Of a stretch of DNA of 64,000 bases, positions 8,625 to 42,639 are shown piece after piece. The stretch lies in assembly GCA_963834935.1 (NCBI GenBank), contig CAWIDS010000001.1:236499-300498 (forward strand). The letters run 5' to 3'. The notes below the pieces were generated by a model. It was not told the DNA's origin, did no database searches, and saw only the letters and a list, made by a program, of their open reading frames with translations. A program made the translations under genes and the position numbers. Every line of letters begins with the position of its first letter. Positions within the stretch are counted from its first letter, which is position 1. The DNA is from Candidatus Nomurabacteria bacterium. Its GTDB lineage: Bacteria > Patescibacteriota > Minisyncoccia > Phycocordibacterales > CALRBL01.

Positions 8625-9161
8625 TTATTGGGAAAAAGTAGGGACCATGACATCCAAATTTCCCATCCAGGAAGTTCCTTTATCGGTCTTCGAGGAAGTA
8701 AGGACGACATTGGAAATGGAGATCAGATAGGAAGAATCATCGAGATGTTGCAGCAAGGAAACCATGCCACTGAAGCTCCCGTTGGCCTCGATACCAAGAT
8801 GGAACGTATTGATCGGTCCGACACCGCTCTGTCCCGGAATGATCTCGAGCGATTGCATGGTGCATGAAAGCGAGATGCTTGAGCAGAGCGATTCTATCGA
8901 CGCGATGAAGTCCGCTTCTCCTCCGTTCTTGATGACATGCGAAAGTATCTCATCGCTCTTGGCGTCGAGCTGTTTAGCATTTATATCATTAATGACTAGG
9001 AGCGACGTGCTGTCCTGCAAGGTCATCTGGTTTTTTTGCAAGTCAATCTGATCCTGCCTCATCGTCCTAATGGAATAGAAGAAGAAAAGATAAGCGCCGA
9101 CACAAAGAAGAACGAAGGCTATCTCGGAGATTATGACGATTTGGAAGGTATTTTTTTTCAT
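8625..9161 (-). CDS. pilO: Type IV pilus assembly protein PilO-like
   Basis: 178 aa with an N-terminal TM helix, a coiled coil and a periplasmic domain. It lies immediately downstream of the PilN-like and PilM-like genes. Confidence 0.6.
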   Translation of the reverse strand: MKKNTFQIVIISEIAFVLLCVGAYLFFFYSIRTMRQDQIDLQKNQMTLQDSTSLLVINDINAKQLDAKSDEILSHVIKNGGEADFIASIESLCSSISLSCTMQSLEIIPGQSGVGPINTFHLGIEANGSFSGMVSLLQHLDDSSYLISISNVVLTSSKTDKGTSWMGNLDVMVPTFSQ

Positions 9162-9162
9162 A

Positions 9163-9681
9163 TCATTTCAATTCGAGCTGCAGGGTGAAATTATCGTCAG
9201 TGCTTTTGGCGATATCAGAGATGGGAAGGTCGGCACTCTTGAAGTAGGGATCCGTCTTGAATGAATTCCAGAAAGAGATGAGGTCTTCGCGCGTCTTGCT
9301 AGTGCCAATGACCCCCATAGCCTTGCCGCTCCACTGTATGTCGTCTATGGCTATGGCGCTCGTCTTCTTGTCGAGGACGCGGGAAATGGCATCGACCGCA
9401 GAGAGCGATGAGGTCGAAGTATGGCTATCAATATATGACAGGACCGCCTTCAAGTCATGTGATTTTGAAATGGCTTCGCTGCTGCTGGCGGAAAGGGCCG
9501 GCGCGTTCGCTTTCTTGGATACCTGACTTACGTTTCCCTTTTCATAGAAATACGAAGGCAGGAGGCTGACGATGGCTATGATGCCAAGAGCGCACAGAAA
9601 GGCCAGGCTCACCACAGCTAATCTCGTATGATATTCTTTCTTGATTTCCTTCTTTTCTTTTGGGGGTAAAAGAGTAAGCAT
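9163..9681 (-). CDS. pilN: Type IV pilus assembly protein PilN-like
   Basis: 172 aa, single TM. Sits in the pilM-pilN-pilO gene order. Confidence 0.6.
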   Translation of the reverse strand: MLTLLPPKEKKEIKKEYHTRLAVVSLAFLCALGIIAIVSLLPSYFYEKGNVSQVSKKANAPALSASSSEAISKSHDLKAVLSYIDSHTSTSSLSAVDAISRVLDKKTSAIAIDDIQWSGKAMGVIGTSKTREDLISFWNSFKTDPYFKSADLPISDIAKSTDDNFTLQLELK

Positions 9682-9686
9682 ATTGA

Positions 9687-10766
9687 TTAATAGAGCTTAG
9701 GAAGGGCTACCCCTATTGATGAAGCAAAATTAAGGGCGTCTTCGGCTTTTATTGGTGGGATGTATTCGTCGAAGGAAGCCACATTCGTCCAGACATTGCC
9801 GATATCAGTCTCGACTTTCATATTCTGGCTTATGAATTCCTTGAAGCCGGTGATCGTTGCCCCCCTTCCGCAAAGTAGAATCTTCCTCACTTCATCCGCT
9901 GCCTTTCCATCGCTGCTTTTGTGGGTATGCCAATACACGTATACTTTTTCTATCTCCTGGCGGAAAGCCGAAGCGGTACCCATCAAGGCGTTGAGCACTT
10001 CCTCATTTTCCTTGCTTCTGGTGAAGCCCTTCTCTTTTTTCATTTTTTCAGCTGCCTCTTCGGAAAGAGCGAATTGCTTCATCAATGCAGCAGTGAAATC
10101 CCCGCTCCCGATAGGGATAGTCGAAGAAAACTGCACGCTTCCCTGGCTGACGATGAAGAATCCTGTCCTTTTCTGGTTGATGTTCACTATGAGATACGTT
10201 CCAAGATCGTCTTTCTTTATTAAGGCTTTTGAAATAGCCTGCGCCTCAATGAGGAACGAGAGTGGCACCAGTCCGCATTCCTTGAGAAGCGATATATAGC
10301 CCTCAATGACCGTTCGCGGAAGGACAGTCACCATCACGCTGGCGCGTCCGTTGCTGATGCTGCTGCTTATGATGCGATAATCGAAGATCGCCTCGGCGCC
10401 GGAAAGCGGCACATTCTCTTCCAGATTGAATTCGATGACATTTCTCATCTTCTCGTCTGTCTCTATCTCGATTTCGGTCTTGAAAAGGTAAGCTTTTTCC
10501 TCAGGAATAGAAGCTTCGACATAATCGAGATTGAATTGTTTCTTCCACCGCTTCAAGGTCTCCTTCACCTCGGCATTGTCGCCCTCCCCGACCAAGAAAG
10601 GAGTGGTGAAATGGCTCTCAGCAAAGCGGCCGACCTTCAGCGAGTCGTTCCCTTTTACGATCTCAATGAATCTCATCGAATAAGAAGAGATGTCGATGCC
10701 GACGCAAGGCATTTCGAGGAATTTAGGCGTCGGGAAATATCTGAAAAAGGTTTTTGCCCGGAACAT
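9687..10766 (-). CDS. pilM: Type IV pilus assembly protein PilM (actin-like ATPase fold)
   Basis: 359 aa. CVGIDISSYSMRFIEI at the N-terminus and later GSGDFTAALMKQF give the PilM/FtsA-like fold. Confidence 0.75.
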   Translation of the reverse strand: MFRAKTFFRYFPTPKFLEMPCVGIDISSYSMRFIEIVKGNDSLKVGRFAESHFTTPFLVGEGDNAEVKETLKRWKKQFNLDYVEASIPEEKAYLFKTEIEIETDEKMRNVIEFNLEENVPLSGAEAIFDYRIISSSISNGRASVMVTVLPRTVIEGYISLLKECGLVPLSFLIEAQAISKALIKKDDLGTYLIVNINQKRTGFFIVSQGSVQFSSTIPIGSGDFTAALMKQFALSEEAAEKMKKEKGFTRSKENEEVLNALMGTASAFRQEIEKVYVYWHTHKSSDGKAADEVRKILLCGRGATITGFKEFISQNMKVETDIGNVWTNVASFDEYIPPIKAEDALNFASSIGVALPKLY

Positions 10767-10786
10767 ATTGGCCTAATTGTATCACA

Positions 10787-11149
10787 TCAGACAAGGCGCG
10801 CGCCATTTGAAATGGGAGACGACGGTTCTATGAAAGAGAAGCCTTCCTGATCGTCGCTTGCCACCATGATCATGCCGTTGCTTTCCACGCCGCGTATCAT
10901 CCGGGGCTCGAGATTGGTGACGAAGGGGAATTTCTTGCCGATAAGGTCTGCCGGCGTGGCGACGCGATGAGCGATGCCCGAGACGATAGTGCGAACTTCC
11001 TGTTCGCCGAAATCCACCGCAAGCTTGATGAGCTTGTCGGTATCCTCTATCTTCTCCGCCGACTTTATCTCGCCAATCTTAACCTCTATTTTCTTGAAAT
11101 ATTCGAAGGATATTTTTTCCATGACGCTATTATATATTATTTCCTCCAT
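10787..11149 (-). CDS. tRNA-binding domain protein (CsaA/Trbp111/MetRS C-terminal-like)
   Basis: GKKFPFVTNLEPRMIRGVESNGMIMVAS is the EMAP/Trbp111 OB-fold signature. A start at MEEIIYNS avoids a long overlap with ruvX. Confidence 0.7.
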   Translation of the reverse strand: MEEIIYNSVMEKISFEYFKKIEVKIGEIKSAEKIEDTDKLIKLAVDFGEQEVRTIVSGIAHRVATPADLIGKKFPFVTNLEPRMIRGVESNGMIMVASDDQEGFSFIEPSSPISNGARLV

Positions 11150-18061: not shown

Positions 18062-19200
18062 TGTCCTGTTGTCATTTTGTTTTTTTCTTAACTTTTAATT
18101 TCTTCTTGATAGTCTTCTCGTCTTTGTACTTCGAGCCTCCAATAGCCTTTAGCACCTCGTCAAAAGTTGCTTCGACTACTTTGTGAATTTTTACCTTTCT
18201 TCCTCTTGTTTCTTTTTTCATGCCGTGAGTTTCTTGTAAGGCATTCTAGCATTACTTGAAACCTTTTGCACTACCTTCGAGAACAAATCCTGCATATCAA
18301 GGTCTCGGTTGTTGAAACGGAAGGCGAACTCGTCAACGTATCGCTGTAGATGTTTCTTGCTCATGGTATGATAGATGCCGTGATAGCCTCTCTTGAACAA
18401 AGCCCAAAAGCTCTCTGCGGTATTTGAGTGAATATCGCCTCGAACATACTCGTACTTTCCATGCTTCACTACTCCGTGATTGAAATGCTTGTTGAGCTTT
18501 GAATAAGAAAGAAAATCATCAGTATAGACGTTGCTTCCTTTCTCCACATTAGCGATGATATGTCCTTCAACGGTAGCGACTTTGACATCAGGAATGACTG
18601 TTGTCCTGACTTCTCCACCTCGCTGAAACAAACCCATGACAGCGGTCTTGGTTGTCGTACTTCTTCCTTGCGTGTGTTTCGTTCGCTTGTTGTAGTGTTT
18701 GTTCTTCTCCTTGCCTCCTGTATAGGTTTCGTCTACCTCTACCGTTCCAAAGAGCTTGCCATTATTTTGCTTTAAAGACTCACGGATGCGCATATCCATG
18801 TACCAAGCGGTCTTTTGAGACACGCCGACCTGTTGTGCAAGCTCAATGGACGATATACCTTTCTTTCGTGTTGTAAGGAGATAGATAGCGATAAACCACT
18901 TTTGAATAGGTAGTTTGCTTTCTCCAAAAAGCGTGCCTGTCTTTATCGTGAAATCTTGTCGGCATGAATGACATCGGTAACGCTTGCCGTCTGCAAAGCG
19001 CATAATCTTGTCATGTTTGCAGTGGGGACAGTATTCGCCTTCCTTGAAGCGGATTAGCTCGAAATACTTTCGGCAAGTGTCCTCGTCCTTGAAGAAGTTT
19101 ATAAATTCTGCTAGGGTTTTGAAATCGTTTTTCATACCCTTATCTTATACCCATTGATTGGGGTTGTCAAGTTATATAAATAATATGATACACCTATACA
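18062..19200 (-). mobile_element. IS1595-family insertion sequence (boundaries approximate)
   Basis: A single transposase ORF sits at the right-hand edge of the AT-rich island next to a tRNA-like gene. Terminal inverted repeats could not be defined by eye. Confidence 0.4.
18218..19135 (-). CDS. IS1595-family (ISXO2-like) transposase
   Basis: 305 aa. N-terminal zinc-binding CPHC...CHSC, then a DDE region typical of ISXO2-like transposases. Confidence 0.8.
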   Translation of the reverse strand: MKNDFKTLAEFINFFKDEDTCRKYFELIRFKEGEYCPHCKHDKIMRFADGKRYRCHSCRQDFTIKTGTLFGESKLPIQKWFIAIYLLTTRKKGISSIELAQQVGVSQKTAWYMDMRIRESLKQNNGKLFGTVEVDETYTGGKEKNKHYNKRTKHTQGRSTTTKTAVMGLFQRGGEVRTTVIPDVKVATVEGHIIANVEKGSNVYTDDFLSYSKLNKHFNHGVVKHGKYEYVRGDIHSNTAESFWALFKRGYHGIYHTMSKKHLQRYVDEFAFRFNNRDLDMQDLFSKVVQKVSSNARMPYKKLTA

Positions 19201-19302
19201 TAGAAGTCAATTAAATACTAATCCACACAAAAATAAAAAGTATGCTTGACACAAGATAGTGAATATAATACAATAAAATAGAAGTTTAGAAAGTCAAGTC
19301 AG

Positions 19303-19386
19303 TCCCCCCGACGAGAGTCGGACTCGTATACCCGGCAAGGTGTCCGTTTACAAAACGGATGCGTCTACCAGTTCCGCCACAGGGGG
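19303..19386 (-). tRNA. Atypical type II tRNA: Leu-like D-arm and long variable arm but anticodon loop TTTGTAA (anticodon UGU). Possibly an unusual tRNA or a pseudo-tRNA.
   Basis: Reverse complement: CCCCCTG-TG-GCG-GAACTGGTAGA-CGC-A-TCCGT-TTTGTAA-ACGGA-(15-nt variable)-ACGAG-TCCGACT-CTCGT-CGGGGGG-A. The acceptor has one T.G pair. The D-arm nearly matches E. coli tRNA-Leu (TGGCGGAATTGGTAGACGC). Confidence 0.45.
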
Positions 19387-19759
19387 ACAGATTTAACTTC
19401 CTAATTTCTTGAAATGTCGCCAGTAGGAGGAAATATCACAGCAGACATAATCAATTGATTGGGCGAGGAAGGTGTACACCGCCTCTAGGATTTGTATGAG
19501 AGTCATTAGCTCTCGCTCCATAATTATTCTTAGTGCTTCCAGCCTGCTTGTAATATCGCCCCCTACTTGGGACATTTCATCATTCAATTTTCAATAAACT
19601 AACCAACCCCCTGATCACTTGTGACAGGGGGATTGGTTCTTAATCGATACATGCCCTTTTTACCCCGCAGTCAGTCTTTTGTATCGGACCTATGCGGAAA
19701 CCTATATTTTCCAACGTCTTTTTAGTTCAAATCCCTGAGACCCTCGGTATTTAAAGTAC

Positions 19760-19788
19760 TTGACATAAGCTATATATGGGTGTATAAT
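19760..19788 (+). promoter_or_regulatory. Consensus sigma70-type promoter (TTGACA, 17 bp, TATAAT) for the DGR target gene
   Basis: TTGACA at 19760-19765. Exactly 17-bp spacer. TATAAT at 19783-19788, preceded by TG. Confidence 0.6.
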
Positions 19789-19822
19789 CTACAAGCAAGA
19801 TAGTTCTTTGAGAAGAAGCATG

Positions 19823-19871
19823 TTGAGACGAGCTTTTTGTGCCTGTATCGGGCTTAAAAAGCTCGTCTCAA
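19823..19871 (+). promoter_or_regulatory. Perfect 16-bp inverted repeat (stem-loop) in the 5' leader between the promoter and the RBS
   Basis: TTGAGACGAGCTTTTT (19823-38) and AAAAAGCTCGTCTCAA (19856-71), with a 17-nt loop. No U-tract follows, so it is not a terminator. Confidence 0.5.
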
Positions 19872-19920
19872 TTCTGGGACAAGACGCAACCGCTGGAGCG
19901 TATCCGGTACAATAAAGGAG

Positions 19921-20607
19921 ATGACGACGATGCCAAAAGCATTGACCACATCACACGTTACTGCACGGGATCCAAAAGGTCTCCGTTTCATGGAAAAAGT
20001 CGAGGCCGCCTTCAACAAGTCCGGCCTCACCGAAGAAGAAGCGCAACGCATCAATGAGGCCCCCGGTCTCAACGATCACATCGCGCAATTCATCGAAAAG
20101 TTTCGGAACGACAAGTTCGCCCTGCTCGTTGATCTCGGCACCATCACGGTGCCCGATGACTACGTTCACGGCAGTCGGCTCACGACGTTTGGTAAGAAAC
20201 ACCGCAAGGAGTTTTATTACTACAACGACAACATCACCGACGGGAACTTCGGCAATCCCTCCCGTGTGCTCAAGCCAGGCGACAAGCTCCGCGTTCGCGC
20301 GTACAAGCAAGTCACCCCCGGCGAGACCACATCGGAAGAGCGCATGGCGTTTCTTGCCACGCAGAAGGCCGTGCTCGTCGGAGCTCAAGGGGCTTCCCTC
20401 GTCTACGAACAGAAACGCGCTCAACTGCCGAAGGGTAAGTGGTACGTTTCCTTCGATGAGAAGGATCGCCTTTGGGAAGATGCCGGCGGCTGCCGCAGGG
20501 TGCCGTACGTGAGTGCCCACTCGGGTGGCGACTTCCACTTCCACCTCGGCTACTTCGAGAACCCCTGGAGCGACGACTTCGTCCTGCTGTGCTTCTGCGA
20601 CGAGTAG
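19921..20607 (+). CDS. DGR variable (target) protein. The C-terminal ~41 codons form the variable repeat. The start is more likely the ATG at 19930, which has an AAGGAG RBS.
   Basis: 228 aa and GC-rich (~57%) against the neighbouring sequence. The 3' end (20480-20602) is near-identical to a downstream repeat, with every mismatch at a template adenine. Confidence 0.7.
   Translation: MTTMPKALTTSHVTARDPKGLRFMEKVEAAFNKSGLTEEEAQRINEAPGLNDHIAQFIEKFRNDKFALLVDLGTITVPDDYVHGSRLTTFGKKHRKEFYYYNDNITDGNFGNPSRVLKPGDKLRVRAYKQVTPGETTSEERMAFLATQKAVLVGAQGASLVYEQKRAQLPKGKWYVSFDEKDRLWEDAGGCRRVPYVSAHSGGDFHFHLGYFENPWSDDFVLLCFCDE
20480..20602 (+). repeat. DGR variable repeat (VR)
   Basis: 123 bp aligned to 20952-21074. 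There are 15 mismatches and all lie where the template has A (VR has G, T or C). Confidence 0.8.
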
Positions 20608-20658
20608 TCCTTGGAAACTTGGATACTTAAGTTAGTTACTTCGGGTCTTAGACCCTTT

Positions 20659-20699
20659 GAGCCCGCGCGAGACTTTTTCGCGCGGGCTCTTTCTTTTTT
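20659..20699 (+). terminator. Rho-independent terminator after the DGR target gene
   Basis: GAGCCCGCGCG...CGCGCGGGCTC, an 11-bp GC stem, followed by TTTCTTTTTTG. Confidence 0.6.
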
Positions 20700-20951
20700 G
20701 TATAATAATTTCGGAACTTAGATAGCGCATGCGGTCACTAGAATTTCTTAGATTTCATGCCATCGAATTCTCGTATAAGGAATCGGCGAGCAATTTCTTG
20801 GGTACGCCTTAGAGATGAGTGCCACCTTTTATGAAAAAATCAAATAAGTCGGTGCGATGTGTCAGCGAGTGAATACTCGGAATAAAATACAGAGGGGAAC
20901 CGGTGTTCCTCTTGGTGGAATAGACGACACGTCGTACATTGCTGGTAGGCT

Positions 20952-21074
20952 ATGCCGACGGCAACCACAGGGTGCCGAACGTGAATGCCAACTCGGATGG
21001 CGACTTCAACTTCAACCTCGGCAACTTCGAGAACCCCTGGAACGACGACAACGTCCTGCTGTGCTTCTGCAACT
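20952..21074 (+). repeat. DGR template repeat (TR)
   Basis: Non-coding copy of the VR that keeps adenines at every variable position. Lies between the target gene and the avd-like gene. Confidence 0.8.
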
Positions 21075-21090
21075 CAAATGATTTCTCCCG

Positions 21091-21408
21091 CTATTTGTTA
21101 GCGGGAGTTTTGTCTCCGAGGTTTTTCTTCCAACCACCGAGCATCCGGCCGACTTCATCAAGGAGGAGTATGAACTCACCATAGCTTTTATGGTCAATGA
21201 CTTTGTGTTCCCAGCTTACTTGCAGAAAAAACTTCAACAGATCGGCTTTTGCAATAGCTTGAGATACAAGCGACAGTTTCTCGAATTTGTCGTAGGCAAA
21301 ACAAGCTCTGAATATGAGTTCAAGAAGAGAGAGGAAAATATCATCAACTCTGGCACCGATCGTGTAGCGATCGACGCGTTTTAGATTTACGATTGAGCCA
21401 TGCCACAC
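21091..21408 (-). CDS. avd: Avd-like four-helix-bundle protein (DGR accessory variability determinant; '23S rRNA intervening-sequence protein' family)
   Basis: 105 aa. C-terminal LLLDEVGRMLGGWKKNL resembles bAvd ...LIAEVGRILGSWIARVN. Matched from recalled sequence. Confidence 0.55.
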   Translation of the reverse strand: MWHGSIVNLKRVDRYTIGARVDDIFLSLLELIFRACFAYDKFEKLSLVSQAIAKADLLKFFLQVSWEHKVIDHKSYGEFILLLDEVGRMLGGWKKNLGDKTPANK

Positions 21409-21472
21409 TTGGTATGCTTCCTTCGCGCGTACAAGAACGAGCGGAATCGTGGGGGGGGTTACTTCCTAGTTT

Positions 21473-21688
21473 ATGCTGACTCATACATACAATTCTATCA
21501 TCACGATCGAAAATTTACTTCTCACATGGGAGAAATTTTTGCGTGGCAAAAGACGCAAAAGAGATGTCATACAATTTCAGGCAGAGCTCGCGGCGAATAT
21601 TGTGAGTCTGTATGCCGATTTGAAAAACAAGACGTATGTGACCCGGTCCCCAAATTTTAAACACCCCTTCTACACAATTAACAGCTAA
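21473..21688 (+). pseudogene. Reverse transcriptase N-terminal fragment (DGR RT), cut short by the IS3-family insertion
   Basis: SIITIENLLLTWEKFLRGKRRKRDVIQFQAELAANIVSLYADLKNKTY matches the conserved N-terminal region of DGR/retron-type RTs. Motifs 1-7 are absent. The ORF stops at the IS boundary. Confidence 0.6.
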
Positions 21689-21704
21689 TTTGTAGAATAC
21701 ATAC

Positions 21705-21956
21705 ATGAAGAAATATCGTATCGCTCCCGAAGTAAAGGAGCAGGTTTTAGGTAGGATTAAAAATGATGGCATATCGGTAGCGGAAGCGGCTAAAGACCAC
21801 GGAGTTTCCACCCACACCATATACAAGTGGCTGGGAGGCTCGGCGGACGGTCCCTCGTATGCCGAGATGGCACGACTCAGAAAGGAAAACAAAGCTCTTC
21901 TTGAACTGGTTGGAGAGATGACTCTCAAGCTGTCTGAATCCCAAAAAAAGAATTGA
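21705..21956 (+). CDS. IS3-family transposase OrfA (HTH)
   Basis: 83 aa. ISVAEAAKDHGVSTHTIYKWL helix-turn-helix and a leucine-zipper-like C-terminus. Confidence 0.8.
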   Translation: MKKYRIAPEVKEQVLGRIKNDGISVAEAAKDHGVSTHTIYKWLGGSADGPSYAEMARLRKENKALLELVGEMTLKLSESQKKN

Positions 21957-22774
21957 GGAGTATGAAATCTTCTGACAAATCAACGCTTGCCAGGGAGCTT
22001 GGCGTTTCTCGAGGCACTTTGTACTACAAGCCAAAGAAACCTGACAGGGATTGGGTGCTGAAGTGCCGGATTGAGGAAACCCTCAGGGAGCATCCCTCAT
22101 ACGGCTCAAGAAGGATTGCTATCCACCTCAAAATGAACCGAAAACCTGTTCAAAGAGTCATGAGCATATTCGGCATCAAAGCATATCGCAGGCGTGGCAG
22201 AAAATGGAAGAAAACAAGGAATATCAAGGTCACTTACCCCAATCTGTTGTTGACGGAATACCCTTCATGCGAGAACCATATCTGGGTGTCGGACTTCACC
22301 AGAATTCCTTTTCAAGGGAAGGTTGTGTATGTGGCAACCGTTGAGGACTTGTTCACCAGGAAAGTGGTTGGTGTGTCGGTCTACACCAACCATTCGGTGC
22401 AACTGACCTTGTCAGCCTTGATGAATGCGATGCTTTCAAATTCAAGACCGGAAATATTTCACTCCGACAATGGCAGTGAGTACAATTCGGAGACATTTGT
22501 TGGAGCATTGCAAACAGTCGGAGTATCCATTTCCCGTTCAGCTCCCGGCTGTCCATGGGAGAACGGCTACCAGGAATCGTTCTATGACAAATTCAAGGTG
22601 GAGCTTGGAGATCCTTCCCGATTCAAAACACTCGGTGAACTCGTCTCAGAAATGTACCGACTGATCCACTACTACAATCAAAGCCGCATACATTCCGCAC
22701 TTAAAATGTCTCCGTCAGAATTTGCGAAAATACAGAAAAAAGAGTTAAACTTAGTGAGTAGAATGAGTGTCTAA
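21953..22774 (+). CDS. IS3-family transposase OrfB (DDE/rve integrase core)
   Basis: WVSDFT...HSDNGSEY...ENGYQESF gives the D, D and E catalytic residues with the typical spacing. Confidence 0.85.
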   Translation: MRSMKSSDKSTLARELGVSRGTLYYKPKKPDRDWVLKCRIEETLREHPSYGSRRIAIHLKMNRKPVQRVMSIFGIKAYRRRGRKWKKTRNIKVTYPNLLLTEYPSCENHIWVSDFTRIPFQGKVVYVATVEDLFTRKVVGVSVYTNHSVQLTLSALMNAMLSNSRPEIFHSDNGSEYNSETFVGALQTVGVSISRSAPGCPWENGYQESFYDKFKVELGDPSRFKTLGELVSEMYRLIHYYNQSRIHSALKMSPSEFAKIQKKELNLVSRMSV

Positions 22775-23509
22775 AGAAAGGGGTCCGGTACACGGGTACC
22801 ATTTTTCCAATGGATCAATTGTGAGTGTTGTATACCCTACGATTGTGCGGAGTGTTTCAATTTTTTCAACATTCAGTTTGAATTTTTTTAGAAGTTTTTT
22901 AGCATCCTCTTTCAATGCGCCAAAATTAAATTGAAAATCAGGCTGTCTTGTATAGTATCTAGTTCGCTCTGGCTTCCAGCTATCGGAATAACGGGGAGCT
23001 AAGTCAAAGGTGTGGAGCATGCGAAGAAAATTGTAGAGGTAATCACACAACATCAATTCGCTAGGCCAACCGGTAGGACCTCTTTGTTCCTTTTTATTAG
23101 CAATATTAAAACTCATTGCACCGCCATTACCCCAAGAAATATACCTTGTTACAGGTTGTTGATTCTGCATTCTCCTAGAATCCGGACTTTCTAATTTTCC
23201 CTCCTCATTAATAATGTTATTGCTCAACTGCAATACTATGTAGATCTGAAATGGGCTGTAATAATGAACAGGTTGTTCTTTCATTGACCCATCGTTTTGC
23301 AACACAGATTGTTCAGCTATCAAAAGCGGCTTAAGAAATCCGTCGCTCTCCATAGCTGTCAAAAAATTTTTCTCTACGTACCGATGAAATTTGCCTGTCA
23401 TGGTCACAACCCTATTATTAGAATCATTGCAGTAATAGATAAAATTGTCTTCTGAAAGAAGCTGGTCTTTTTTTATTTCAGCATTTTTGACTCTAGTTAT
23501 TTTTTCCAT
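22751..23509 (-). CDS. Hypothetical protein (AT-rich)
   Basis: 252-aa ORF with no recognisable motifs. Abuts the IS3 right end. Confidence 0.4.
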   Translation of the reverse strand: MEKITRVKNAEIKKDQLLSEDNFIYYCNDSNNRVVTMTGKFHRYVEKNFLTAMESDGFLKPLLIAEQSVLQNDGSMKEQPVHYYSPFQIYIVLQLSNNIINEEGKLESPDSRRMQNQQPVTRYISWGNGGAMSFNIANKKEQRGPTGWPSELMLCDYLYNFLRMLHTFDLAPRYSDSWKPERTRYYTRQPDFQFNFGALKEDAKKLLKKFKLNVEKIETLRTIVGYTTLTIDPLEKWYPCTGPLSLDTHSTH

Positions 23510-35108: not shown

Positions 35109-35927
35109 ATGGCCAGTATGGATGTAGAAAATTATTTAAGGAGCATACTCAAGAAATACTCGATATCAGCTGATCTCAATCGGCTCATTGCCATTGGAAA
35201 CGCCGAAAAATCTGTCAGAGTAGTTATTACCGAATGGGCTCATACATTTCTACACGAGATCAAGCGGTCAGGCTCGATTGAGAAGGGCACTGCTATCTCG
35301 ACTTCGGCAGATCTTGATCTGTTTATATCGCTAAAATCAGAAACACCAGGTTCCTTGCCAGAGCTATACGAGGGTCTTGCCAAGTGGCTTGAGTCAAAGA
35401 ACTATAAAATCCGTAGACAGAATAGCTCCATCAGGATCAATCATGCAGGTATCAATGTCGATCTCATACCCGCACGAAAGTTCGCTAGTCAAAGCGGCTC
35501 TTTGCCGGGATTGCTCGGTCAGAGCCAAGACCACTCCATACGCATAAGGAAAAGTAACTCTTGGGCAAAGACTAATATTGAGGCACAGATACGGAAGGTC
35601 AAGGACTCAAGGAGACACGACGACATAAAGCTGGCTAAGATATGGCGTGATATAAGCGGTATCGATTTTCCGTCAATTTACCTTGAGCTTTCAGTCATCA
35701 AGGCTCTTAACGGCGATGCTCTAGGGTTGTTACTGCCGCCACCCATATCAAAAAGGTTCGTGACTTTCATGAACTACCTTGTCAATGACTTTGAGACAGC
35801 GACAATCGAAGACCCTGGCAATAAGAGTAACAAGATATCAGATGACCTCTCGACAGTAGAAAAGAAGGTGATTATCAACGCCGCAAAAAATGTCCTAACT
35901 AAAAACTGGACTCAAGTACTATGGTAA
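35109..35927 (+). CDS. Short cGAS/DncV-like nucleotidyltransferase (CD-NTase/SMODS-like) of a CBASS-type system
   Basis: GSIEKGTAISTSADLDLFISL (GS...GT...DhD, Pol-beta NTase motif) and the third acidic residue in INVDLIP. Overlaps the next gene by 7 nt (ATGGTAA). Confidence 0.6.
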   Translation: MASMDVENYLRSILKKYSISADLNRLIAIGNAEKSVRVVITEWAHTFLHEIKRSGSIEKGTAISTSADLDLFISLKSETPGSLPELYEGLAKWLESKNYKIRRQNSSIRINHAGINVDLIPARKFASQSGSLPGLLGQSQDHSIRIRKSNSWAKTNIEAQIRKVKDSRRHDDIKLAKIWRDISGIDFPSIYLELSVIKALNGDALGLLLPPPISKRFVTFMNYLVNDFETATIEDPGNKSNKISDDLSTVEKKVIINAAKNVLTKNWTQVLW

Positions 35928-36616
35928 AAAAGATCAACATTCAAAAATTATTCGAGGCACTCGACGAAGAGATGCGACTAAAGCTCTCGAGCAAGATCGA
36001 TGAGATATATCATCCGACCGCAAAGGGTGATGAGTCTGAGCTTAACTGGATCGGCTTGCTCAGGTCATATCTTCCCGAAAGGTATACCGTCGACAGTGGC
36101 TTCGTCGTCGATCACGAAGGTAATCTGAGCGAACAGATTGATATCATTATTTACGATAGGCATTTCACTCCTTTTATCTTTAGGGGAGAAAATGTGGTCT
36201 ATATTCCAGCCGAAGGTGTATATGCGGTCTTTGAGGTTAAGCCCTATTTTGACAAAAAGAATCATGATTACGCCGTAAAGAAGCTCGGTAGCGTCAAGGC
36301 ACTCAAAAGGACCTCGGCACAGTTTACGCATATCGGTGGTAAAGATAAAAAGGAGCTTTTTGATGTGGTCGGAGGGGTCTTAACCAAAGCGAACAAGGCG
36401 AAAAAGCTTTTCAATGATTTGACCATTGGCTCTGAACTATCAGTGATACTGTCGCTCGATCATGGGGTGAAAATCATAAATAGCGAGTCTGTTGAAAAAC
36501 AAGGCAAAGAAGCCGTATTGGCCTTTTTCTTGCTAAAGCTTATTGAGAAATTACGCGCCTTAGGGTCGGTACCTGCGCTAGAGGCGGATAAATATTTGGA
36601 GTCTATCAAAAAATAA
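35921..36616 (+). CDS. nucC: NucC-like cyclic-oligonucleotide-activated restriction-endonuclease-fold nuclease (CBASS effector)
   Basis: HPTAKGDESELNWIGLLRSYLPERY, IDIIIYDR and IPAEGVYAVFEVK (PD-ExK) parallel recalled E. coli NucC segments (HPGAKGDASEGVWIEMLDTYLPKRY, IDVVVFDR, VPAESVYAVFEAK). Confidence 0.6.
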   Translation: MVKKINIQKLFEALDEEMRLKLSSKIDEIYHPTAKGDESELNWIGLLRSYLPERYTVDSGFVVDHEGNLSEQIDIIIYDRHFTPFIFRGENVVYIPAEGVYAVFEVKPYFDKKNHDYAVKKLGSVKALKRTSAQFTHIGGKDKKELFDVVGGVLTKANKAKKLFNDLTIGSELSVILSLDHGVKIINSESVEKQGKEAVLAFFLLKLIEKLRALGSVPALEADKYLESIKK

Positions 36617-36625
36617 CGATAATTT

Positions 36626-38425
36626 ATGAGTATTTTGCAGAACATAAACGGTGCAGAAATCTCCTCGTGGTCTGGAGTAAATGTGTCCTCTAATAATTAC
36701 CTCGACCAAGGTCATTGCCTGTTTCGTTTTGTTCATGACGGCTACTGTAATAGTGCCATGCTTAGCACTCCGATTTATCTCGATCTAGGAGGTGCCCTAG
36801 CCGCCTTTGGTCTGTTATTTGCCGTATACCAACTCCGTAATCCTAAATGGGATACTGCCCTCAAAATCCGTGATGCTTGGCAACGCCACCTATTCTGGAT
36901 ACTGGGAATCATAGGCTTAGCTCTTGTCCTCGCACGAGTGCTGATAACGCAGATACCTGTAGATTATCTCAGTTACCCATTCAATGTTCCTATACTATAT
37001 GAGCTTTTAGCATACGTCTTCTTCGTAGCATCGCCACTCTCTTTGATGTATTTCGGGCAACGATCGAAGCATCTCTTCAAAGAAAGAACAGCGAGAAAAT
37101 TCTACGAGGTACTCATAGCAGAAGTGTCTCGTTCTGACGAAAAATGGATTGATGCCGCCCTCGAAGTGCTCATGCGCAATTTCGACGATATCTGCAAATC
37201 GATTGCTGAAAATGAGCCGAGGACTGAGATAAGCGGATCAGCTCGAGCGATCATCGATGTTGTCTTGAGCGAAGAGTCGATAGTTAAAATTTTGACCACC
37301 AAACGGCTCGATGCGCTTCAGCGTATATTTTATACAATCAAGAAATATCACATTAATCGCAATCAATGCGACGTCGGTATACCAGCACTTGTCAGAAATT
37401 TGTTCCTCGACGAAACATCTTTCTTTTACAAGCATCTTAACCGAGACGGCTTGGCATTGTCATTGAATATCTACGAAAGCATTTTTGAGTCACCGATACT
37501 GCTCACCAATTTTAATCTATTCGGGTATCCGACCTTGGGATACTCGGCACGAAATAATAGTGGCATCGCTATGAAGGTATTTATTCAGGCCCTGTCAAAA
37601 TCTATTGCCACATATTTGAAAACAGGAAAAGGGTCGGTGCGCTATATAAATGATGGTCTCGAATACCTCAGTGACGCATTCGGGAATATATGCATGAAAA
37701 TCAGCACTGAGGAAGGTAGAGGTGTTGATACGAGATACAGTTTAGAGGATGAATGGTGGACGTTGCATGACATCGCACATTTCTTGGGTCATGACTACCC
37801 ATTCCTGGTCTACCAAGACACACTTAATCAAATTACTGTTGATACAGAAAAGACAGCGTCTGAAGCAGGATTTTATTCTGATCTAACAATCAACGCTGGT
37901 ATTGCCGCCGTCTTATATAAAGCATTTGAACAACTCGCATATCTTAGAAAGACGACCGACATATATCATACCGTTCTCCAGCTACTGAATGGTATGATGT
38001 ACCACGAAAATTATAAGGAAGGATACAGGAATCCGTTTGAAAAAAGACTGTGGGAACAGATTGCCAAAAACGTATCAAGCAAGCACTATCCAAATGTGCT
38101 CAGGATCTACCTTACATTTATGGGCTTTATGCTCACCTCTGACGATACCAATCAGAGACAAGGTTGGATTGGTGGACAGACGGAGAGAATGAGGAGATTA
38201 CTCTATGTTGATCTCAAGCCGCTTCTCGATAGGGGTGAAAAGATGGTCAATGATGAGCTAATGATCGATGTCCTGCTTCCAGAATGGATGAAGTACAAAG
38301 ATGGCAAATTCTCGTATACTAATGGCTTTGGCAGGGGTGATACGAAAGTGATTACCGAGCCACCTGCGGGATCAGCATCGGCTTTAGTAGGTGTTGATAT
38401 GGATAATCGCAGTTCATTGCTCTAG
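36626..38425 (+). CDS. Large membrane protein of unknown function, operonic with the CD-NTase and nucC genes
   Basis: 599 aa. Three or four N-terminal TM helices and a ~450-aa soluble domain with no recognisable motifs. Starts 10 nt after the nucC stop. Confidence 0.5.
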   Translation: MSILQNINGAEISSWSGVNVSSNNYLDQGHCLFRFVHDGYCNSAMLSTPIYLDLGGALAAFGLLFAVYQLRNPKWDTALKIRDAWQRHLFWILGIIGLALVLARVLITQIPVDYLSYPFNVPILYELLAYVFFVASPLSLMYFGQRSKHLFKERTARKFYEVLIAEVSRSDEKWIDAALEVLMRNFDDICKSIAENEPRTEISGSARAIIDVVLSEESIVKILTTKRLDALQRIFYTIKKYHINRNQCDVGIPALVRNLFLDETSFFYKHLNRDGLALSLNIYESIFESPILLTNFNLFGYPTLGYSARNNSGIAMKVFIQALSKSIATYLKTGKGSVRYINDGLEYLSDAFGNICMKISTEEGRGVDTRYSLEDEWWTLHDIAHFLGHDYPFLVYQDTLNQITVDTEKTASEAGFYSDLTINAGIAAVLYKAFEQLAYLRKTTDIYHTVLQLLNGMMYHENYKEGYRNPFEKRLWEQIAKNVSSKHYPNVLRIYLTFMGFMLTSDDTNQRQGWIGGQTERMRRLLYVDLKPLLDRGEKMVNDELMIDVLLPEWMKYKDGKFSYTNGFGRGDTKVITEPPAGSASALVGVDMDNRSSLL

Positions 38426-39756
38426 GTAGTTTGTATCTGCACGACCTTGTTATTCACCACCACCTTGCTCTTGAGGCACGACAGTAGCTCTCGCTTCTCC
38501 CAGACACCGCCCTCACGCAGGATATACTTGGCATAGTTTCGTATATCGATGTCAGTGGTCTTGATAGCAGTCGGTTTTTCCCCAAGAAGTGATGACTGGA
38601 ATTTCTTGTGTCGCTCGATCTCGCTCTTGACCCGCTCTTTCATGCCGATCTCATCGAGGTCGATCTTGTCCATGAGTGTCGCCAGTTGTTCGATGAGGTC
38701 TTCTTCATTGATCCAGCCAGAGGTGCACTTCGGATCATTATGTCTGGTACATCCGTAGTAGACATATCGGTGGACATTGCCGTTCTTTTGCTTCTTGTAT
38801 TTCTCGTCAGCGGTGATGCCTGATCCGCATAGTCCGCAGGACATGAGCTTGGTGAAGGCGAACTCCTTATGATCGCCCCGGTCAGCATAGTCGATCATAT
38901 TCTCCTGCACTTTGTCGAAGAGCTCTTTGGTGATGAGGGGCGTATGCTTGCCCTGATACCACTGTCCACCGCCTTTCGGATACTCGAATGCGCCATAGTA
39001 GAAAGTATTGCGGAGTGTAAGGTAGACATTGCTCAAGGAAAATATCTTGCCGTTTCTGGTTTTGAATTTTATATCGTTCTTGAGCCATGCGTGAATCTTT
39101 CTACCACTCCATTTCTCATATCCTGCTTTTTCGAATACCTTTTTAACAATTGGCGCTCTATGGGGATCAACCTCGACATGACACCGCTTGTCCACATTCT
39201 TGCTATTAAGATAGCCAGTCGGTGCCGTGCATGGCCATAGTCCCATCTCGCATCGAGCTCGGAGTCCGCGCTTGACGTTAACCACCTTGTTGTCATTCTC
39301 GAGCTTGGCCTGTGATCCTAGAATCATCAGCATGAACTTGTCATTCGGCGTGTTCATGAATTTCTGGCCATAGGTGCGTATCTCGATGAGCTTCTTTTGA
39401 TCCATAAGGTCGACGATCCTTCCAAGGTCGCCGGCGTTTCGGCTGATACGATCCGGTGCCCATGTGAGGATGCCATTAAATTTACCACTTTTTATTTCAT
39501 CGACTATTTCATTGAATACTTGTCGTTGTCCCGCCTCCTTGGCCGAGTGCGACTCCTTCTTTATCTCTACAATCTCAAGGCACTCTTTTTCGGCCATGGC
39601 GATCATCTCCTTGATCTGCGAGTCGATGGACAAGACTTGTTTGTCCTCGGCCTCAGTTGATTTTCTCGCGTAAAGGCAGTACTTCATCGGTATCGCCTTT
39701 ATCTCCGGCTTTACAAAGGCGCCGGTAAACCCTTTTGTTGCTTGTATTTGTTGCAT
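38422..39756 (-). CDS. Large serine recombinase/integrase
   Basis: N-terminal resolvase domain YARKSTEAEDKQVLSIDSQ with the catalytic Ser, a recombinase domain and a C-terminal zinc ribbon (CGLCG...C..C). Confidence 0.85.
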   Translation of the reverse strand: MQQIQATKGFTGAFVKPEIKAIPMKYCLYARKSTEAEDKQVLSIDSQIKEMIAMAEKECLEIVEIKKESHSAKEAGQRQVFNEIVDEIKSGKFNGILTWAPDRISRNAGDLGRIVDLMDQKKLIEIRTYGQKFMNTPNDKFMLMILGSQAKLENDNKVVNVKRGLRARCEMGLWPCTAPTGYLNSKNVDKRCHVEVDPHRAPIVKKVFEKAGYEKWSGRKIHAWLKNDIKFKTRNGKIFSLSNVYLTLRNTFYYGAFEYPKGGGQWYQGKHTPLITKELFDKVQENMIDYADRGDHKEFAFTKLMSCGLCGSGITADEKYKKQKNGNVHRYVYYGCTRHNDPKCTSGWINEEDLIEQLATLMDKIDLDEIGMKERVKSEIERHKKFQSSLLGEKPTAIKTTDIDIRNYAKYILREGGVWEKRELLSCLKSKVVVNNKVVQIQTT

Positions 39757-39759
39757 ATT

Positions 39760-39783
39760 GGTATACCTGTTAGCTGGTATACC
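39760..39783. repeat. Two palindromic GGTATACC octamers 8 bp apart, immediately upstream of the recombinase start; candidate att core or operator
   Basis: GGTATACC-TGTTAGCT-GGTATACC. Confidence 0.3.
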
Positions 39784-39891
39784 TCAAGGGATGACGCAAC
39801 CCCGCCGAGGAGTCTAGGAGGCCTGAAGTTGGTAAAGTGTCGGTAACTAAATACTCAAAAAAGCTTCTAAAATATAGGAAAAAATGCTAGA

Positions 39892-41481: not shown

Positions 41482-42635
41482 GCACTTGGACTAAGCAAAA
41501 ATTATCGGATATTTGCGACGTTAGGGACGGAACGCATGATTCACCTAAGCCTGCTACAAGTGGTTTTCCTTTGGTGACTTCAAAACATATAATAAATAAC
41601 AAAATTGATTTTTCGAGTGCATACTTGATAACGAATGAGGATTTTGATGCTGTAAATAAAAGAAGCAAAGTAAGCAAGTTCGATATTCTGATTAGTATGA
41701 TTGGTACTGTTGGTGAAATTGCTCTTGTAAAAGAGGAGCCTAGATTTGCTATAAAAAATGTTGGTCTAATAAAAACAAATAATGAAACACTGGGTAAATA
41801 TTTATTTTATTATCTAATTTCACCAACCGGTAAAAATATACTCAGTTCATTTCTTACAGGTTCAACACAAAAATTTATTAGCCTTAGTAAACTTAGAGAT
41901 TTTCCAATAACACTACCACCGGAAGAAAATCAAAATAAGATCACTTCTGTCCTCTCCGCCTACGATGACTTGATAGAAAACAATGAAAAGCGCATCAAGA
42001 TACTGGAAGAAATGGCACAACTTCTTTATACCGAATGGTTTGTAAAGTTCAAATTTCCCGGCTATGAAAAAGTAAAGGTGGTCCATAGTGGCACTGAATA
42101 CGGCAAGATTCCGACGGGGTGGGAGGTGAGAAATGTTGAAAGCTTAATCAAACGGATTCCGGTTGGTAAAAAATATGAAAATAAAAGTGTCCTTGAGATA
42201 GGCAGAGTCCCCGTACTTGATCAAGGGAAATCAGGCTTTATTGGTTATCACAATGACGAGCCTGGTGTAAAAGCTTCAATTGAAAACCCAGTGATTGTTT
42301 TTGCAAATCATACCTGCTATCAAAATATCATCGTCTATCCATTTTCGGCGATACAAAATGTTCTACCGTTTGTTCCAAATGATGAACGAGATATTTTTTG
42401 GTTGCACTGGTCTACGAAAGACCTAATTAAATTTAACGACTACAAAGGTCACTGGCCGGAATATATGTCAAAGAAACTCATTGTGCCGTCTGTTGATTTA
42501 ACAAAAAAATTCGGCAGTATTGTCGGTAAATATGTTGCGATGAAATATAAAATGGAAACAGAAAATAAAAACTTATCCCAAATCCGCGATCTTTTAATTC
42601 CCCAGCTGGTGAATGGGAAAAGGGATTTAAAATAA
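41463..42635 (+). CDS. hsdS: Type I R-M specificity subunit HsdS
   Basis: 390 aa. Two AT-rich target-recognition domains separated by conserved coiled-coil repeats (ITSVLSAYDDLIENNEKRIKILEEMAQLLYTEWF). Confidence 0.85.
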   Translation: MEKDFMSTWTKQKLSDICDVRDGTHDSPKPATSGFPLVTSKHIINNKIDFSSAYLITNEDFDAVNKRSKVSKFDILISMIGTVGEIALVKEEPRFAIKNVGLIKTNNETLGKYLFYYLISPTGKNILSSFLTGSTQKFISLSKLRDFPITLPPEENQNKITSVLSAYDDLIENNEKRIKILEEMAQLLYTEWFVKFKFPGYEKVKVVHSGTEYGKIPTGWEVRNVESLIKRIPVGKKYENKSVLEIGRVPVLDQGKSGFIGYHNDEPGVKASIENPVIVFANHTCYQNIIVYPFSAIQNVLPFVPNDERDIFWLHWSTKDLIKFNDYKGHWPEYMSKKLIVPSVDLTKKFGSIVGKYVAMKYKMETENKNLSQIRDLLIPQLVNGKRDLK

Positions 42636-42639
42636 TTTT

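Follow-up and report, generated by a model that had tools for sequence, protein, structure and literature searches.

Organisation of the locus

The window, that is, the whole 64-kb stretch of DNA that was analysed, carries a diversity-generating retroelement (DGR) with its target gene, a variable region (VR), a template region (TR), a structured leader RNA, the accessory gene avd and the 5′ end of a reverse transcriptase (RT) gene, beyond which lies an insertion sequence. Its features, with related cassettes designated by L numbers, are:

19665..21639, plus strand: conserved DGR cassette, from its left boundary to the cut in RT homology (identity with L047 and L048)
19760..19788, plus strand: putative promoter of the sigma-70 type upstream of the target gene, TTGACA-17-TATAAT (12/12 consensus positions)
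19823..19871, plus strand: long hairpin in the 5′ leader of the target gene (inverted repeat by self-BLAST)
19921..20607, plus strand: DGR target (variable protein) gene, an ORF of 228 aa, or 225 aa if the ATG at 19930 is used
20480..20601, plus strand: VR
20659..20699, plus strand: GC-rich 14-bp hairpin and T-run, 58 nt past VR (terminator scan)
20699..20706, plus strand: extended -10 element TGTATAAT, its TATAAT-like hexamer kept in the aligned cassettes that reach this point
20719..20940, plus strand: structured non-coding leader RNA directly 5′ of TR (covariation), with helix 1 (20721-20764), helices 2-4 (20771-20834), a conserved single strand (20835-20851) and helices 5-7 (20852-20937)
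20952..21073, plus strand: TR, non-coding, the same in L047
21085..21107, plus strand: hairpin of 9 bp with a trailing T-run, 11 nt past TR and overlapping the avd stop codon (terminator scan)
21091..21484, minus strand: avd accessory gene (Pfam bAvd), out of frame; ATG 21484-21482, conserved body frame 21465-21094, stop codon 21093-21091
21451..21458, either strand: homopolymer tract (G8 on the plus strand, C8 as read in avd) that separates the start codon of avd from the body of Avd
21473..21637, plus strand: DGR RT remnant, codons 1-55 of about 327 (tblastn with the L016 and L033 RTs)
21638..22793, plus strand: IS3-family insertion sequence of about 1.15 kb, its ends uncertain by 2-3 nt; orfA 21705-21956 (Pfam HTH_Tnp_1), orfB 21953-22774 (Pfam rve; NCBIfam transpos_IS3, 211 bits), A7G slippery site 21943-21950, imperfect 39-nt terminal inverted repeats 21638-21676 and 22755-22793
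22794..23509, minus strand: truncated gene at the right flank of the insertion sequence, its first ~238 codons genuine

The repeat pair and the target gene

VR and TR align without gaps at a fixed offset of 472 nt, and a self-comparison of the 64-kb window identified them as the sole long repeat of the region. The similarity breaks off sharply at either side, with a G/T mismatch at 20602/21074, and the pair measures 122 bp rather than the 123 bp given in the first-pass annotation. The adenine specificity claimed there stands: all 15 mismatches fall at TR adenines (7 A>G, 5 A>T and 3 A>C) and, because 31 of the 122 nt of TR are adenines, the probability of 15 random sites all falling on A is about 5e-11. 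Differences confined to TR adenines, where VR carries G, T or C, uphold the signature of mutagenic retrohoming. In the reading frame of VR, 12 of the TR adenines occupy codon position 1 and 19 position 2, with none at position 3.

The target protein matches no Pfam or NCBIfam profile and had been called unannotatable. The absence of profile matches holds, yet the protein belongs to a family in which 468 homologues were found, which come from Patescibacteria wherever a source is named. Its AlphaFold2 model has a mean pLDDT of 85 (about 97 for residues 65-228), and the VR-bearing domain is predicted from this model to be C-type-lectin-like, with modest structural scores.

Hairpins and a structured leader RNA upstream of TR

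The hairpin at 20659..20699 may terminate transcription of the target gene and/or correspond to the hairpin seen after VR in other DGRs. The extended -10 element at its 3′ edge is likely to be the promoter of the TR RNA. In the leader RNA that follows, 96% of cells in an alignment of 16 sequences are paired, compared with 37-48% when the partners are slid, and compensatory changes occur in 39 of 67 pairs, a level reached in 0 of 500 shuffles. A covariance model of the 3′ domain (20831-20940) finds one match per cassette in 56 loci and none elsewhere in 570 kb; in a 52-sequence alignment, 24 of 26 pairs are compensatory. Comparison with Rfam yielded no credible match.

The stem of the hairpin past TR also carries compensatory changes. 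Other DGRs have an Avd-binding stem-loop of about 9 bp just downstream of TR (bioRxiv 10.1101/2023.10.23.563531), and the hairpin may, by analogy, serve as a bidirectional terminator and/or as such an Avd-binding element.

The avd gene and its simple-sequence repeat

The minus-strand gene proposed to be Avd-like is indeed an Avd: it scores 47.5 bits against Pfam bAvd (cut-off 40), though its 53.8 bits against NCBIfam DivGenRetAVD lie under that model's cut-off of 80. Of the span 21091..21408 first assigned to it, the stop end is kept; the NCBIfam match extends upstream of the GTG at 21408, and the gene reaches an ATG at 21484, out of frame at the C8 tract. Its orientation opposite to the target and RT had seemed unusual, a view that does not survive comparison. 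An avd on the opposite strand and adjoining RT is found in 57 of 57 related genome loci with upstream sequence, nearly all of them from MAGs labelled as Patescibacteria lineages. Wu et al. (2018, PMC5758913) described this layout as the B3 architecture, TR-(avd)-RT, to which 90% of CPR DGRs belong; the arrangement is therefore not unusual in this lineage.

The tract that breaks the avd frame is the only G/C run of at least 7 nt in the 64-kb window. In close relatives it reads C9 (L001) or C10 (L047), and only C10 is in frame, giving L047 an intact Avd of 131 aa. A repeat occupies the equivalent position in the 5′ coding region of avd in 58 of 62 cassettes and takes four forms, poly-C, (CA)n, (CT)n and (AG)n. 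Across the related loci (452 kb), most G/C runs of at least 8 nt and all eight long dinucleotide repeats are instances of it. When only ATG starts are counted, avd is in frame in 19 cassettes and out of frame in 41, the window copy among the latter. Both frame offsets occur among the out-of-frame loci, so no single fixed frameshift direction rescues every one of them. Between the window and L047 the tract is the sole indel across 1975 bp. Similarly, when L016, which shares its C8 tract with four other assemblies, is compared over ~470 bp with L113/L114, short-read assemblies from two other samples, the one gap is an indel at the tract.

There is an appreciable chance, short of even, that this repeat is no switch, and that its length differences reflect homopolymer sequencing or assembly errors, or that Avd is made constitutively through programmed ribosomal or transcriptional slippage. 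Homopolymers of 8-11 nt slip readily in vitro and during transcription. Moreover, the in-frame close relatives L043 and L047 share one assembly, with contig names suggesting long reads, and the L043 RT has a probable frameshift error. Against such an explanation stand the recurrence of the repeat at one place in four different forms, its dominance among the repeats of the related loci, the presence of both frame offsets, and its being the only gap in both pairwise comparisons. Searches of the accessible DGR literature found no description of a repeat in the 5′ coding region of avd or of a long structured RNA upstream of TR; both are clade-wide features that appear to be undescribed.

The RT remnant and the IS3 element

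The ORF at 21473, whose first 12 nt overlap the start of avd in the opposite direction, aligns (E 7e-24) with residues 1-55 of the intact RTs, 325-327 aa long, that related cassettes encode. When the intact L016 and L033 RTs were searched against the window with tblastn, only residues 1-55/59 matched. Over these 55-59 residues the stub is 75% identical to intact RTs with RVT_1, a YADD box and an LGNLTSQ motif; the L016 RT is matched by Pfam RVT_1. The sole match of the ORF among solved structures is the RT of the Bordetella-phage DGR (8ub7), which is also the best solved relative of the intact L047 RT (E 1e-38, compared with 1e-14 for group II intron RTs). The remaining parts of RT were sought across the 64-kb window and not found. 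The initial reading, an N-terminal RT segment that ends where an IS3 element begins, with no catalytic domain downstream, is thus confirmed.

How RT was lost is a different matter. No flanking direct repeat (target-site duplication) is seen at the ends of the IS3 element, and no second copy lies within the 64-kb window. On its right, the annotated ORF 22751-23509 continues 14 codons into the insertion sequence; this gene retains the first ~238 aa of a family of proteins with ~600-650 aa, its homologues being mostly 590-670 aa long, and only their first ~230 residues align with query residues 1-238/240. With no target-site duplication and truncated genes on both flanks, the junctions suggest a deletion or rearrangement, not a simple insertion. 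The proposal of a once-active DGR now disabled is retained, its disabling by simple insertion is not, and the loss of ~272 RT codons points to an IS-associated deletion or rearrangement, or to a contig mis-join across IS copies.

It is unlikely that the truncation is an assembly artefact, with the flanks of two IS copies joined and the true locus holding a simple insertion or even, in part of the population, an intact RT. The junctions are exactly what a mis-join would give, and contigs of the close relatives L001, L003 and L048 break or diverge near this region. However, the insertion sequence is single-copy in 64 kb, the same protein set lies on one 432-kb contig, and relatives have genuine truncated RTs, such as that of L109, a complete chromosome, cut after residue ~113. 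Even in a mis-joined contig RT would be interrupted at codon 55, and its 3′ part might lie elsewhere.

Recent activity and present state

An uninterrupted RT, sought in relatives, is present in L047, a metagenome contig on which positions 8857-10833 are 99% identical to the window cassette and which carries intact RT and avd. Its left cassette boundary lies 4 nt within the 3′ end of tRNA-Ser(GGA), and its DNA homology to the window stops at 21639, at the insertion sequence; L048, 100% identical to the window cassette, begins as a contig exactly at 19665. The window and L047 differ by 17 VR substitutions, all at TR-adenine sites, by one other SNP (19869, inside the target-leader hairpin) and by G8 versus G10. 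That two cassettes so alike have diverged almost exclusively at the TR-adenine sites within VR shows that the DGR was active very recently in this lineage. In L043 (88% identical) 22 of 22 VR/TR mismatches are at TR-A sites, and its TR shows three differences from that of the window, none at A positions.

Overall, we put the probability at roughly 90% that the region is a chromosomal DGR of the Patescibacteria (CPR) clade, in an ultra-small bacterium, with the order target gene - TR - (avd, opposite strand) - RT, recently active and now disabled. Known DGRs suggest how an intact copy would work, and the proposed transcript boundaries and functions of leader RNA and hairpin are modelled on them likewise. 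A promoter at ~20700 would give an RNA in which the ~220-nt structured leader precedes the 122-nt TR and the 3′ hairpin comes last; RT and Avd would copy TR into cDNA, misincorporating opposite adenines; and the cDNA would replace the 3′-terminal VR of the target gene, recoding up to 19 codons at the surface of the C-type-lectin-like domain.

With 55 of ~327 RT codons left and avd out of frame, the window copy alone is no longer able to diversify VR. As RT is lost, VR is presumably frozen as it now stands, barring an RT provided by another part of the genome; we infer that no trans-acting RT exists, from an RT search that covered the 64-kb window. It is very improbable that the element is still active through an RT (and Avd) encoded elsewhere and acting in trans on the local TR RNA and VR. 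Intact L047 has exactly the same promoter, leader RNA, TR and 3′ hairpin, and L061, with two RT genes at one related locus, indicates that multi-DGR genomes exist in the clade. On the other hand, the window has no RT domain and its own avd is also out of frame, the identical VR in an independent assembly (L048, P0124) fits a fixed VR, and the prototype RT-Avd needs its own cognate RNA scaffold (bioRxiv 10.1101/2023.10.23.563531).

Comparison with known systems

The cassette resembles the DGRs of CPR/Patescibacteria (B3, PMC5758913; DGR clade 2, Roux et al. 2021, PMC8144416) in gene order and opposite-strand avd, in a VR at the C-terminus of the target and a TR rich in AAC codons, in targets without recognisable domains or membrane segments, and in being cellular, not viral; a search of IMG/VR for relatives found none. 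It differs from them in that the window copy lacks RT and has a frameshifted avd.

With the prototype BPP-1 DGR (mtd-avd-TR-brt) it shares adenine-specific TR-to-VR transfer, a bRT-homologous RT, an Avd four-helix-bundle protein, a (here predicted) C-type-lectin-like variable domain and hairpins downstream of VR and TR. Unlike the window cassette, BPP-1 has all its genes on one strand, and its RNA scaffold comprises 20 nt upstream of TR and a 140-nt spacer downstream, the latter providing the priming site (bioRxiv 10.1101/2023.10.23.563531). In the window the covarying structure found, ~220 nt, is upstream of TR, which is followed by the 9-bp hairpin, as far as which structure was examined, and by antisense avd. 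Compared with C-type-lectin-fold variable proteins (Mtd, TvpA, archaeal AvpA) and FGE-like domains, the target has no Pfam lectin or FGE match, and its VR motif, …RVPxVxxxSDGxFxFxLGxFExxWxDxxxLLCFCD, is unlike the classical CLec VR ends.

The insertion sequence is typical of the IS3 family in its orfA (HTH) and orfB (DDE, rve), A7G slippery site and imperfect terminal inverted repeats, but lacks the 3-5-bp target-site duplication and has truncated genes as both neighbours, differences indicating that neighbouring DNA was deleted, that copies recombined with each other, or that the contig was mis-joined.

Finally, the avd repeat recalls the contingency loci of phase-variable genes in Neisseria, Haemophilus, Campylobacter and, lately, phages: the start codon is closely followed by a homopolymer or dinucleotide repeat, whose length varies among near-identical relatives and sets the frame, and about one-third of alleles are in frame. 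If it is a switch, what the repeat would gate is an accessory factor for targeted hypermutation, not a surface or restriction-modification gene.

The template and its adenines

The variable region (VR) and the template region (TR) of the diversity-generating retroelement (DGR) align without gaps over 122 bp at a constant offset of 472 nt, and their similarity ends sharply on either side. The elements of the locus are the following.

19665-21639: cassette, the conserved DGR unit, in the order target gene, TR, avd (opposite strand), reverse transcriptase (RT)
19921-20607, plus strand: target gene
20480-20601: VR
20719-20940: leader, a structured RNA region directly upstream of the TR
20952-21073: TR
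starting 11 nt after the TR: 9-bp hairpin with a T-run, overlapping the avd stop codon
from 21484 leftwards, minus strand: avd, accessory variability determinant
from 21473, plus strand: RT remnant
21638-22793: IS3-family element, bounded by imperfect terminal repeats of 39 nt and containing orfA (HTH_Tnp_1) and orfB (rve) with an A7G slippery site

The first-pass annotation had described an A-specific pair of 123 bp. The base-for-base alignment stands; its length does not, as 20602/21074 is a G/T mismatch. When mismatches are tabulated by TR base, all 15 lie at adenines (seven A>G, five A>T and three A>C). There are 31 adenines in the 122 nt, which sets the probability that 15 random sites all fall on A at about 5e-11; the VR/TR pattern is genuine, far exceeding what chance would produce. 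Confinement of the mismatches to adenines rules out an ordinary duplicated gene fragment. In the reading frame of the target ORF, 12 TR adenines occupy codon position 1, 19 position 2 and none position 3, and the VR ends 6 nt ahead of the target stop codon. A test for an IMH-like, A-free 3′ end found the final AAC/GAC codon to be the sole variable site in the last ~24 nt of the repeat. A 14-bp GC-rich hairpin 58 nt downstream of the VR is a candidate homing hairpin. The 64-kb window contains no further long repeats of the VR/TR region.

Relatives carry the trace of mutagenesis as well. In L043, a related locus of 88% identity, 22 of 22 VR/TR mismatches fall on TR adenines, and the VRs of cassettes that are otherwise 99-100% identical differ at TR-A sites only. 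The nearest protein relatives of the target (P0004, P0005 and P0123) are near-identical to it outside the VR and scrambled at AAC-templated positions. An uninterrupted RT occurs in L047, a 14.4-kb metagenome contig from the same sample as L043 that is 99% identical to window 19665-21639; it encodes Avd (131 aa) and a full-length RT of 327 aa. Outside the VR the two cassettes are separated by a single substitution, at 19869, and by one homopolymer, which is G8 in the window and G10 in L047; inside the VR there are 17 substitutions, every one at a TR-adenine position (17/17). Such VR-confined TR-A differences between near-identical cassettes show that mutagenic homing operated in the lineage after the last common ancestor of the window and L047 cassettes. 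The pair constitutes a clean natural experiment, in which near-identical cassettes differ almost only at TR-A sites and one has since been left without an RT.

The target protein

The 228-aa target was initially considered unannotatable, and it indeed has no Pfam or NCBIfam match. It does, however, have 468 homologues at E ≤0.001, from Patescibacteria wherever the source is named, and prediction of the C-terminal fold makes a CLec-like VR-bearing domain likely. An AlphaFold2 model based on 64 homologues has a mean pLDDT of 85, rising to ~97 over residues 65-228; in this modelled domain the VR would supply the last strands. No signal peptide or hydrophobic segment is evident in the target sequence. 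Between a consensus promoter and the start codon, the target gene's 5′ leader contains a 14-bp perfect hairpin (19823-19871) that is conserved in L043 and L047.

Loss of the reverse transcriptase

The ORF at 21473 matches no Pfam or NCBIfam family. Its sole match among solved structures is 8ub7_A, the 328-aa Bordetella-phage DGR reverse transcriptase (E 0.01, residues 7-55 versus 10-58), and a word-indexed protein search with the 56-aa stub returned two short fragments only, through which related contigs were nonetheless reached. Intact relatives on related contigs encode RTs of 325-327 aa with an RVT_1 domain (87 bits) and the motifs YADD and LGNLTSQ; their similarity to the window is limited to residues 1-55, at 75% identity (E 7e-24). 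The RT of L047 aligns with 8ub7 at E 1e-38, versus 1e-14 for group II intron RTs. An adjacent catalytic RT with YxDD and I/LGxxxSQ motifs, by which DGRs are recognised, is thus present in the L047 orthologue (YADD and LGNLTSQ) and missing from the window, where neither the rest of the RT nor an RVT domain occurs elsewhere in the 64 kb. The window therefore holds a defective member of the class, and two earlier statements, that the RT is reduced to an N-terminal segment at an IS3 element and that no catalytic motifs lie downstream, proved correct: residues 1-55 remain, with the insertion sequence (IS) beginning at 21638.

The assignment of the element rests on the orfA/orfB arrangement with a −1 slippery site (21943-21950), a DDE transposase (orfB scores 211 bits against NCBIfam transpos_IS3) and inverted repeats. 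Homology between the window and L047 stops exactly at 21639, where L047 goes on with RT codons (…TATGT followed by TCATGATTC…) and the window with the IS. There is no target-site duplication, the flanks ATG(T) and (C)GGG being without repeat. To the right, ORF 22751-23509 (minus strand) encodes the N-terminal ~238 residues of a family whose members mostly have 590-670 aa, and its alignment with that family stops at the IS boundary, so that the IS lies between two truncated genes facing each other. The missing direct repeat and the two truncated genes together indicate that the junctions may stem from an IS-associated deletion, from recombination between two copies or from an assembly mis-join across copies. 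All three readings leave the RT gene interrupted at codon 55. A second IS copy or an inversion carrying the remainder of the RT within the window was rejected because neither was found in the 64 kb.

A once-active DGR stopped by an IS insertion had been proposed; activity followed by disablement is upheld, a simple insertion is not, given the absent target-site duplication and the truncated gene on the right flank. The locus is a genuine DGR of a known CPR type, active until recently and now disabled by loss of the RT, with avd also out of frame. Taken by itself it adds one new but defective member to a known class, and loss of the RT seems to be recurrent in the clade.

A structured RNA upstream of the template

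Some 250 nt between the target terminator and the TR are conserved among 16 aligned cassettes; its first element, also conserved, is a putative promoter, an extended −10 box resembling TGTATAAT (20699-20706). The consensus structure predicted by RNAalifold has seven helices in 20721-20937, in addition to the hairpin that follows the TR. Pairing is retained in 96% of cells across the 16 sequences, compared with 37-48% after shifting the partners by 1-3 columns, and changes on both sides affect 39 of 67 pairs (19 ± 3 in shuffles, with 0/500 as high). A covariance model of the 3′ domain of the leader alone (window 20831-20940) finds exactly one match per cassette at 56 loci. Each match is on the RT strand, directly before the TR; the model was built without about 35 of the 56 loci, and there are no further matches in 570 kb. 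Compensatory changes occur in 24 of 26 pairs among 52 sequences, in an alignment that was fitted to the model and is thereby biased towards the structure. Rfam yielded sub-threshold chance matches only and no credible match for the leader. The ~220-nt leader probably forms the scaffold portion of the DGR RNA in this clade. A search for a priming duplex between the TR 3′ end and either the leader or antisense avd yielded two solutions, one as weak as the other.

A simple repeat sets the frame of avd

The Avd-like gene recognised at first pass is supported by profile search: the minus-strand ORF matches Pfam bAvd with 47.5 bits (gathering score 40), while the NCBIfam DivGenRetAVD match (53.8 bits) falls under its cut-off of 80. 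The latter match reaches upstream of the GTG at 21408 into an open stretch without a start codon. The avd ATG lies at 21484-21482, and the gene overlaps the RT ATG region by exactly 12 nt on opposite strands (21473-21484). These 12 nt, ATGCTGACTCAT, read M-L-T-H for RT and, as the reverse complement, M-S-Q-H for Avd. Of the 22 closest cassettes examined, 17 retain the CAT of RT codon 4, which on the other strand is the avd ATG.

Between this ATG and the conserved Avd body sits a C8 tract (a G tract at 21451-21458 on the plus strand), the only G/C run of at least 7 in the whole window. Relative to the ATG, the Avd body is at +1 with C8 (window), at +2 with C9 (L001, a related locus 97% identical to the window) and in frame with C10 (L047 and L043). 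A survey of 62 cassettes found a simple repeat at this site in 58: poly-C of 6-14 nt in 50, (CA)n in three, (AG)n in three and (CT)n in two. The repeat comparison concerns the window and loci L001, L016, L033, L043, L047, L049-L111, L113 and L114. The avd repeats make up most of the 52 G/C runs of at least 8 and all 8 long dinucleotide repeats in 452 kb of related loci.

By an ATG-only count, in which the T6 and A7 runs of L099 and L107 score as repeats, 19 of the 62 cassettes have avd in frame, 41 have it out of frame, at either offset, and two have no repeat. The 60 repeat-bearing cassettes of this count all retain an open, conserved Avd body, and for this reason a simple avd pseudogene can be dismissed. 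A full-length RT is present at most of the out-of-frame loci. In-frame Avd N-termini read M..(S/T)PPP..IPLVLVRAKE, and the protein database contains M-(S/N)-(E/Q)-H…PPP…IPLVLVRAKE; a look-up with the 105-aa Avd identified no additional contig, and an exact look-up of P0003, the protein from the source genome, yielded no record. Tract length varies among cassettes that are 97-99.8% identical. L016 has an out-of-frame C8, whereas L113 and L114, from two other samples, have an in-frame C7AC; these cassettes are 99.6-99.8% identical and differ by a single indel, at the tract.

Three features here are typical of a contingency locus: about one-third of cassettes in frame, a repeat conserved in position and not in sequence, and length differences among near-identical cassettes. 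The repeat possibly provides phase-variable control of DGR activity. Assembly error in the out-of-frame tracts, and constitutive slippage that would make Avd whatever the tract, remain alternatives to phase variation.

If phase variation is correct, a hypermutable poly-C or CA/CT/AG repeat just past the avd start codon would shift Avd in and out of frame, and at any time only a fraction of cells would be able to diversify the target. The window would then represent an 'off' allele (C8) and its relative L047 an 'on' allele (C10). We give odds of roughly one in two (0.5) to the joint, clade-wide reading, in which hypermutation is placed under a stochastic on/off switch in the avd repeat and the DGR RNA is rearranged, with its large structured scaffold upstream of the TR.

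Little is understood of how cells control DGR mutagenesis. The avd frame switch, if true, would be a simple regulator, conserved in position but not in sequence in 58/62 cassettes, and a case of one evolvability device controlling another. An upstream scaffold would bear on the priming mechanism and on the use of compact CPR DGRs as mutagenesis tools. In the literature searched we could not find a description of the avd repeat and upstream RNA scaffold, both clade-wide, nor any link of DGRs or Avd to homopolymers, simple repeats or phase variation. Through these two features the locus offers a useful way into the control of DGR activity, and the clade comparison that it prompted weighs more than the decayed locus alone.

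Distribution and mobility of the cassette

Scanning species-representative genomes with the RT alignment yielded 63 loci, nearly all from MAGs labelled Patescibacteria (Paceibacterota, Kaiser-, Nomura-, Zambryski-, Taylor-, Yanofskybacteria and others). No relatives of the RT were found in IMG/VR viral contigs. A metagenome pattern scan with A masked to N also returned ~25 NuoL genes, which are unrelated, share a GDFGFxLGIF motif and were discarded. Some loci have paralogous targets, two in L033 and L060, three plus the TR in L040, and a second one downstream of the RT in L057; the VRs of paralogous targets match one TR, and some of these targets are located downstream of the RT. TR and avd are kept in relatives whose RT is independently truncated near its 5′ end: L001 diverges after RT codon 22 and L003 after codon 32, and in L109 (4001-4339; complete chromosome OY970290.1) the RT is cut after residue ~113.

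The cassette may travel on a small integrative island. In L047 its left end lies within tRNA-Ser(GGA) (L047:8773-8860), 4 nt from the 3′ end of the tRNA, and serine-recombinase remnants follow the RT (L047:11690-12592); in the window the same left boundary, 19665, adjoins different DNA, an IS1595 region. The IS1595-family transposase gene (18218-19135) lies just left of the cassette, and near it an unusually long tRNA-Thr(TGT) call (19302-19386, 85 nt) may be a fragment or a mis-call. The window also contains a cluster of defence or mobility genes (35109-46592). Its members are a weak SMODS-like protein, a type I restriction-modification system with HsdM (39892-41478) and HsdR (43467-46589), and a large serine recombinase (38425-39756) that resembles those adjoining the DGR cassettes in L043 and L047 (64-72% DNA identity).

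Comparison with known systems

The orientation of avd, at first thought unusual, is the norm: all 57 related loci with upstream sequence have the gene directly upstream of the RT, on the opposite strand. The TR-(avd)-RT order of the window, in which avd is read from the reverse strand, is the published B3 architecture found in 90% of CPR DGRs (PMC5758913). The window and its relatives correspond to DGR clade 2, which is cellular, restricted to CPR and has targets without recognisable domains (PMC8144416). With SSR contingency loci, avd shares a frame-setting repeat in the 5′ coding region and tract-length polymorphism between near-identical genomes.

Many DGRs have an Avd-binding stem-loop of ~9 bp just downstream of the TR (bioRxiv 10.1101/2023.10.23.563531), and the 9-bp hairpin after the TR here looks similar to it. 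In the Bordetella phage, the scaffold consists of 20 nt upstream of the TR and a 140-nt spacer downstream (bioRxiv 10.1101/2023.10.23.563531). It is thus mainly downstream of the TR, whereas the covarying structure found here is upstream. Taken together, a ~220-nt covarying RNA whose 3′ domain occurs once per cassette at 56 loci, and which has no credible Rfam match, suggests that the RNA scaffold that RT-Avd requires is differently organised in this large clade.
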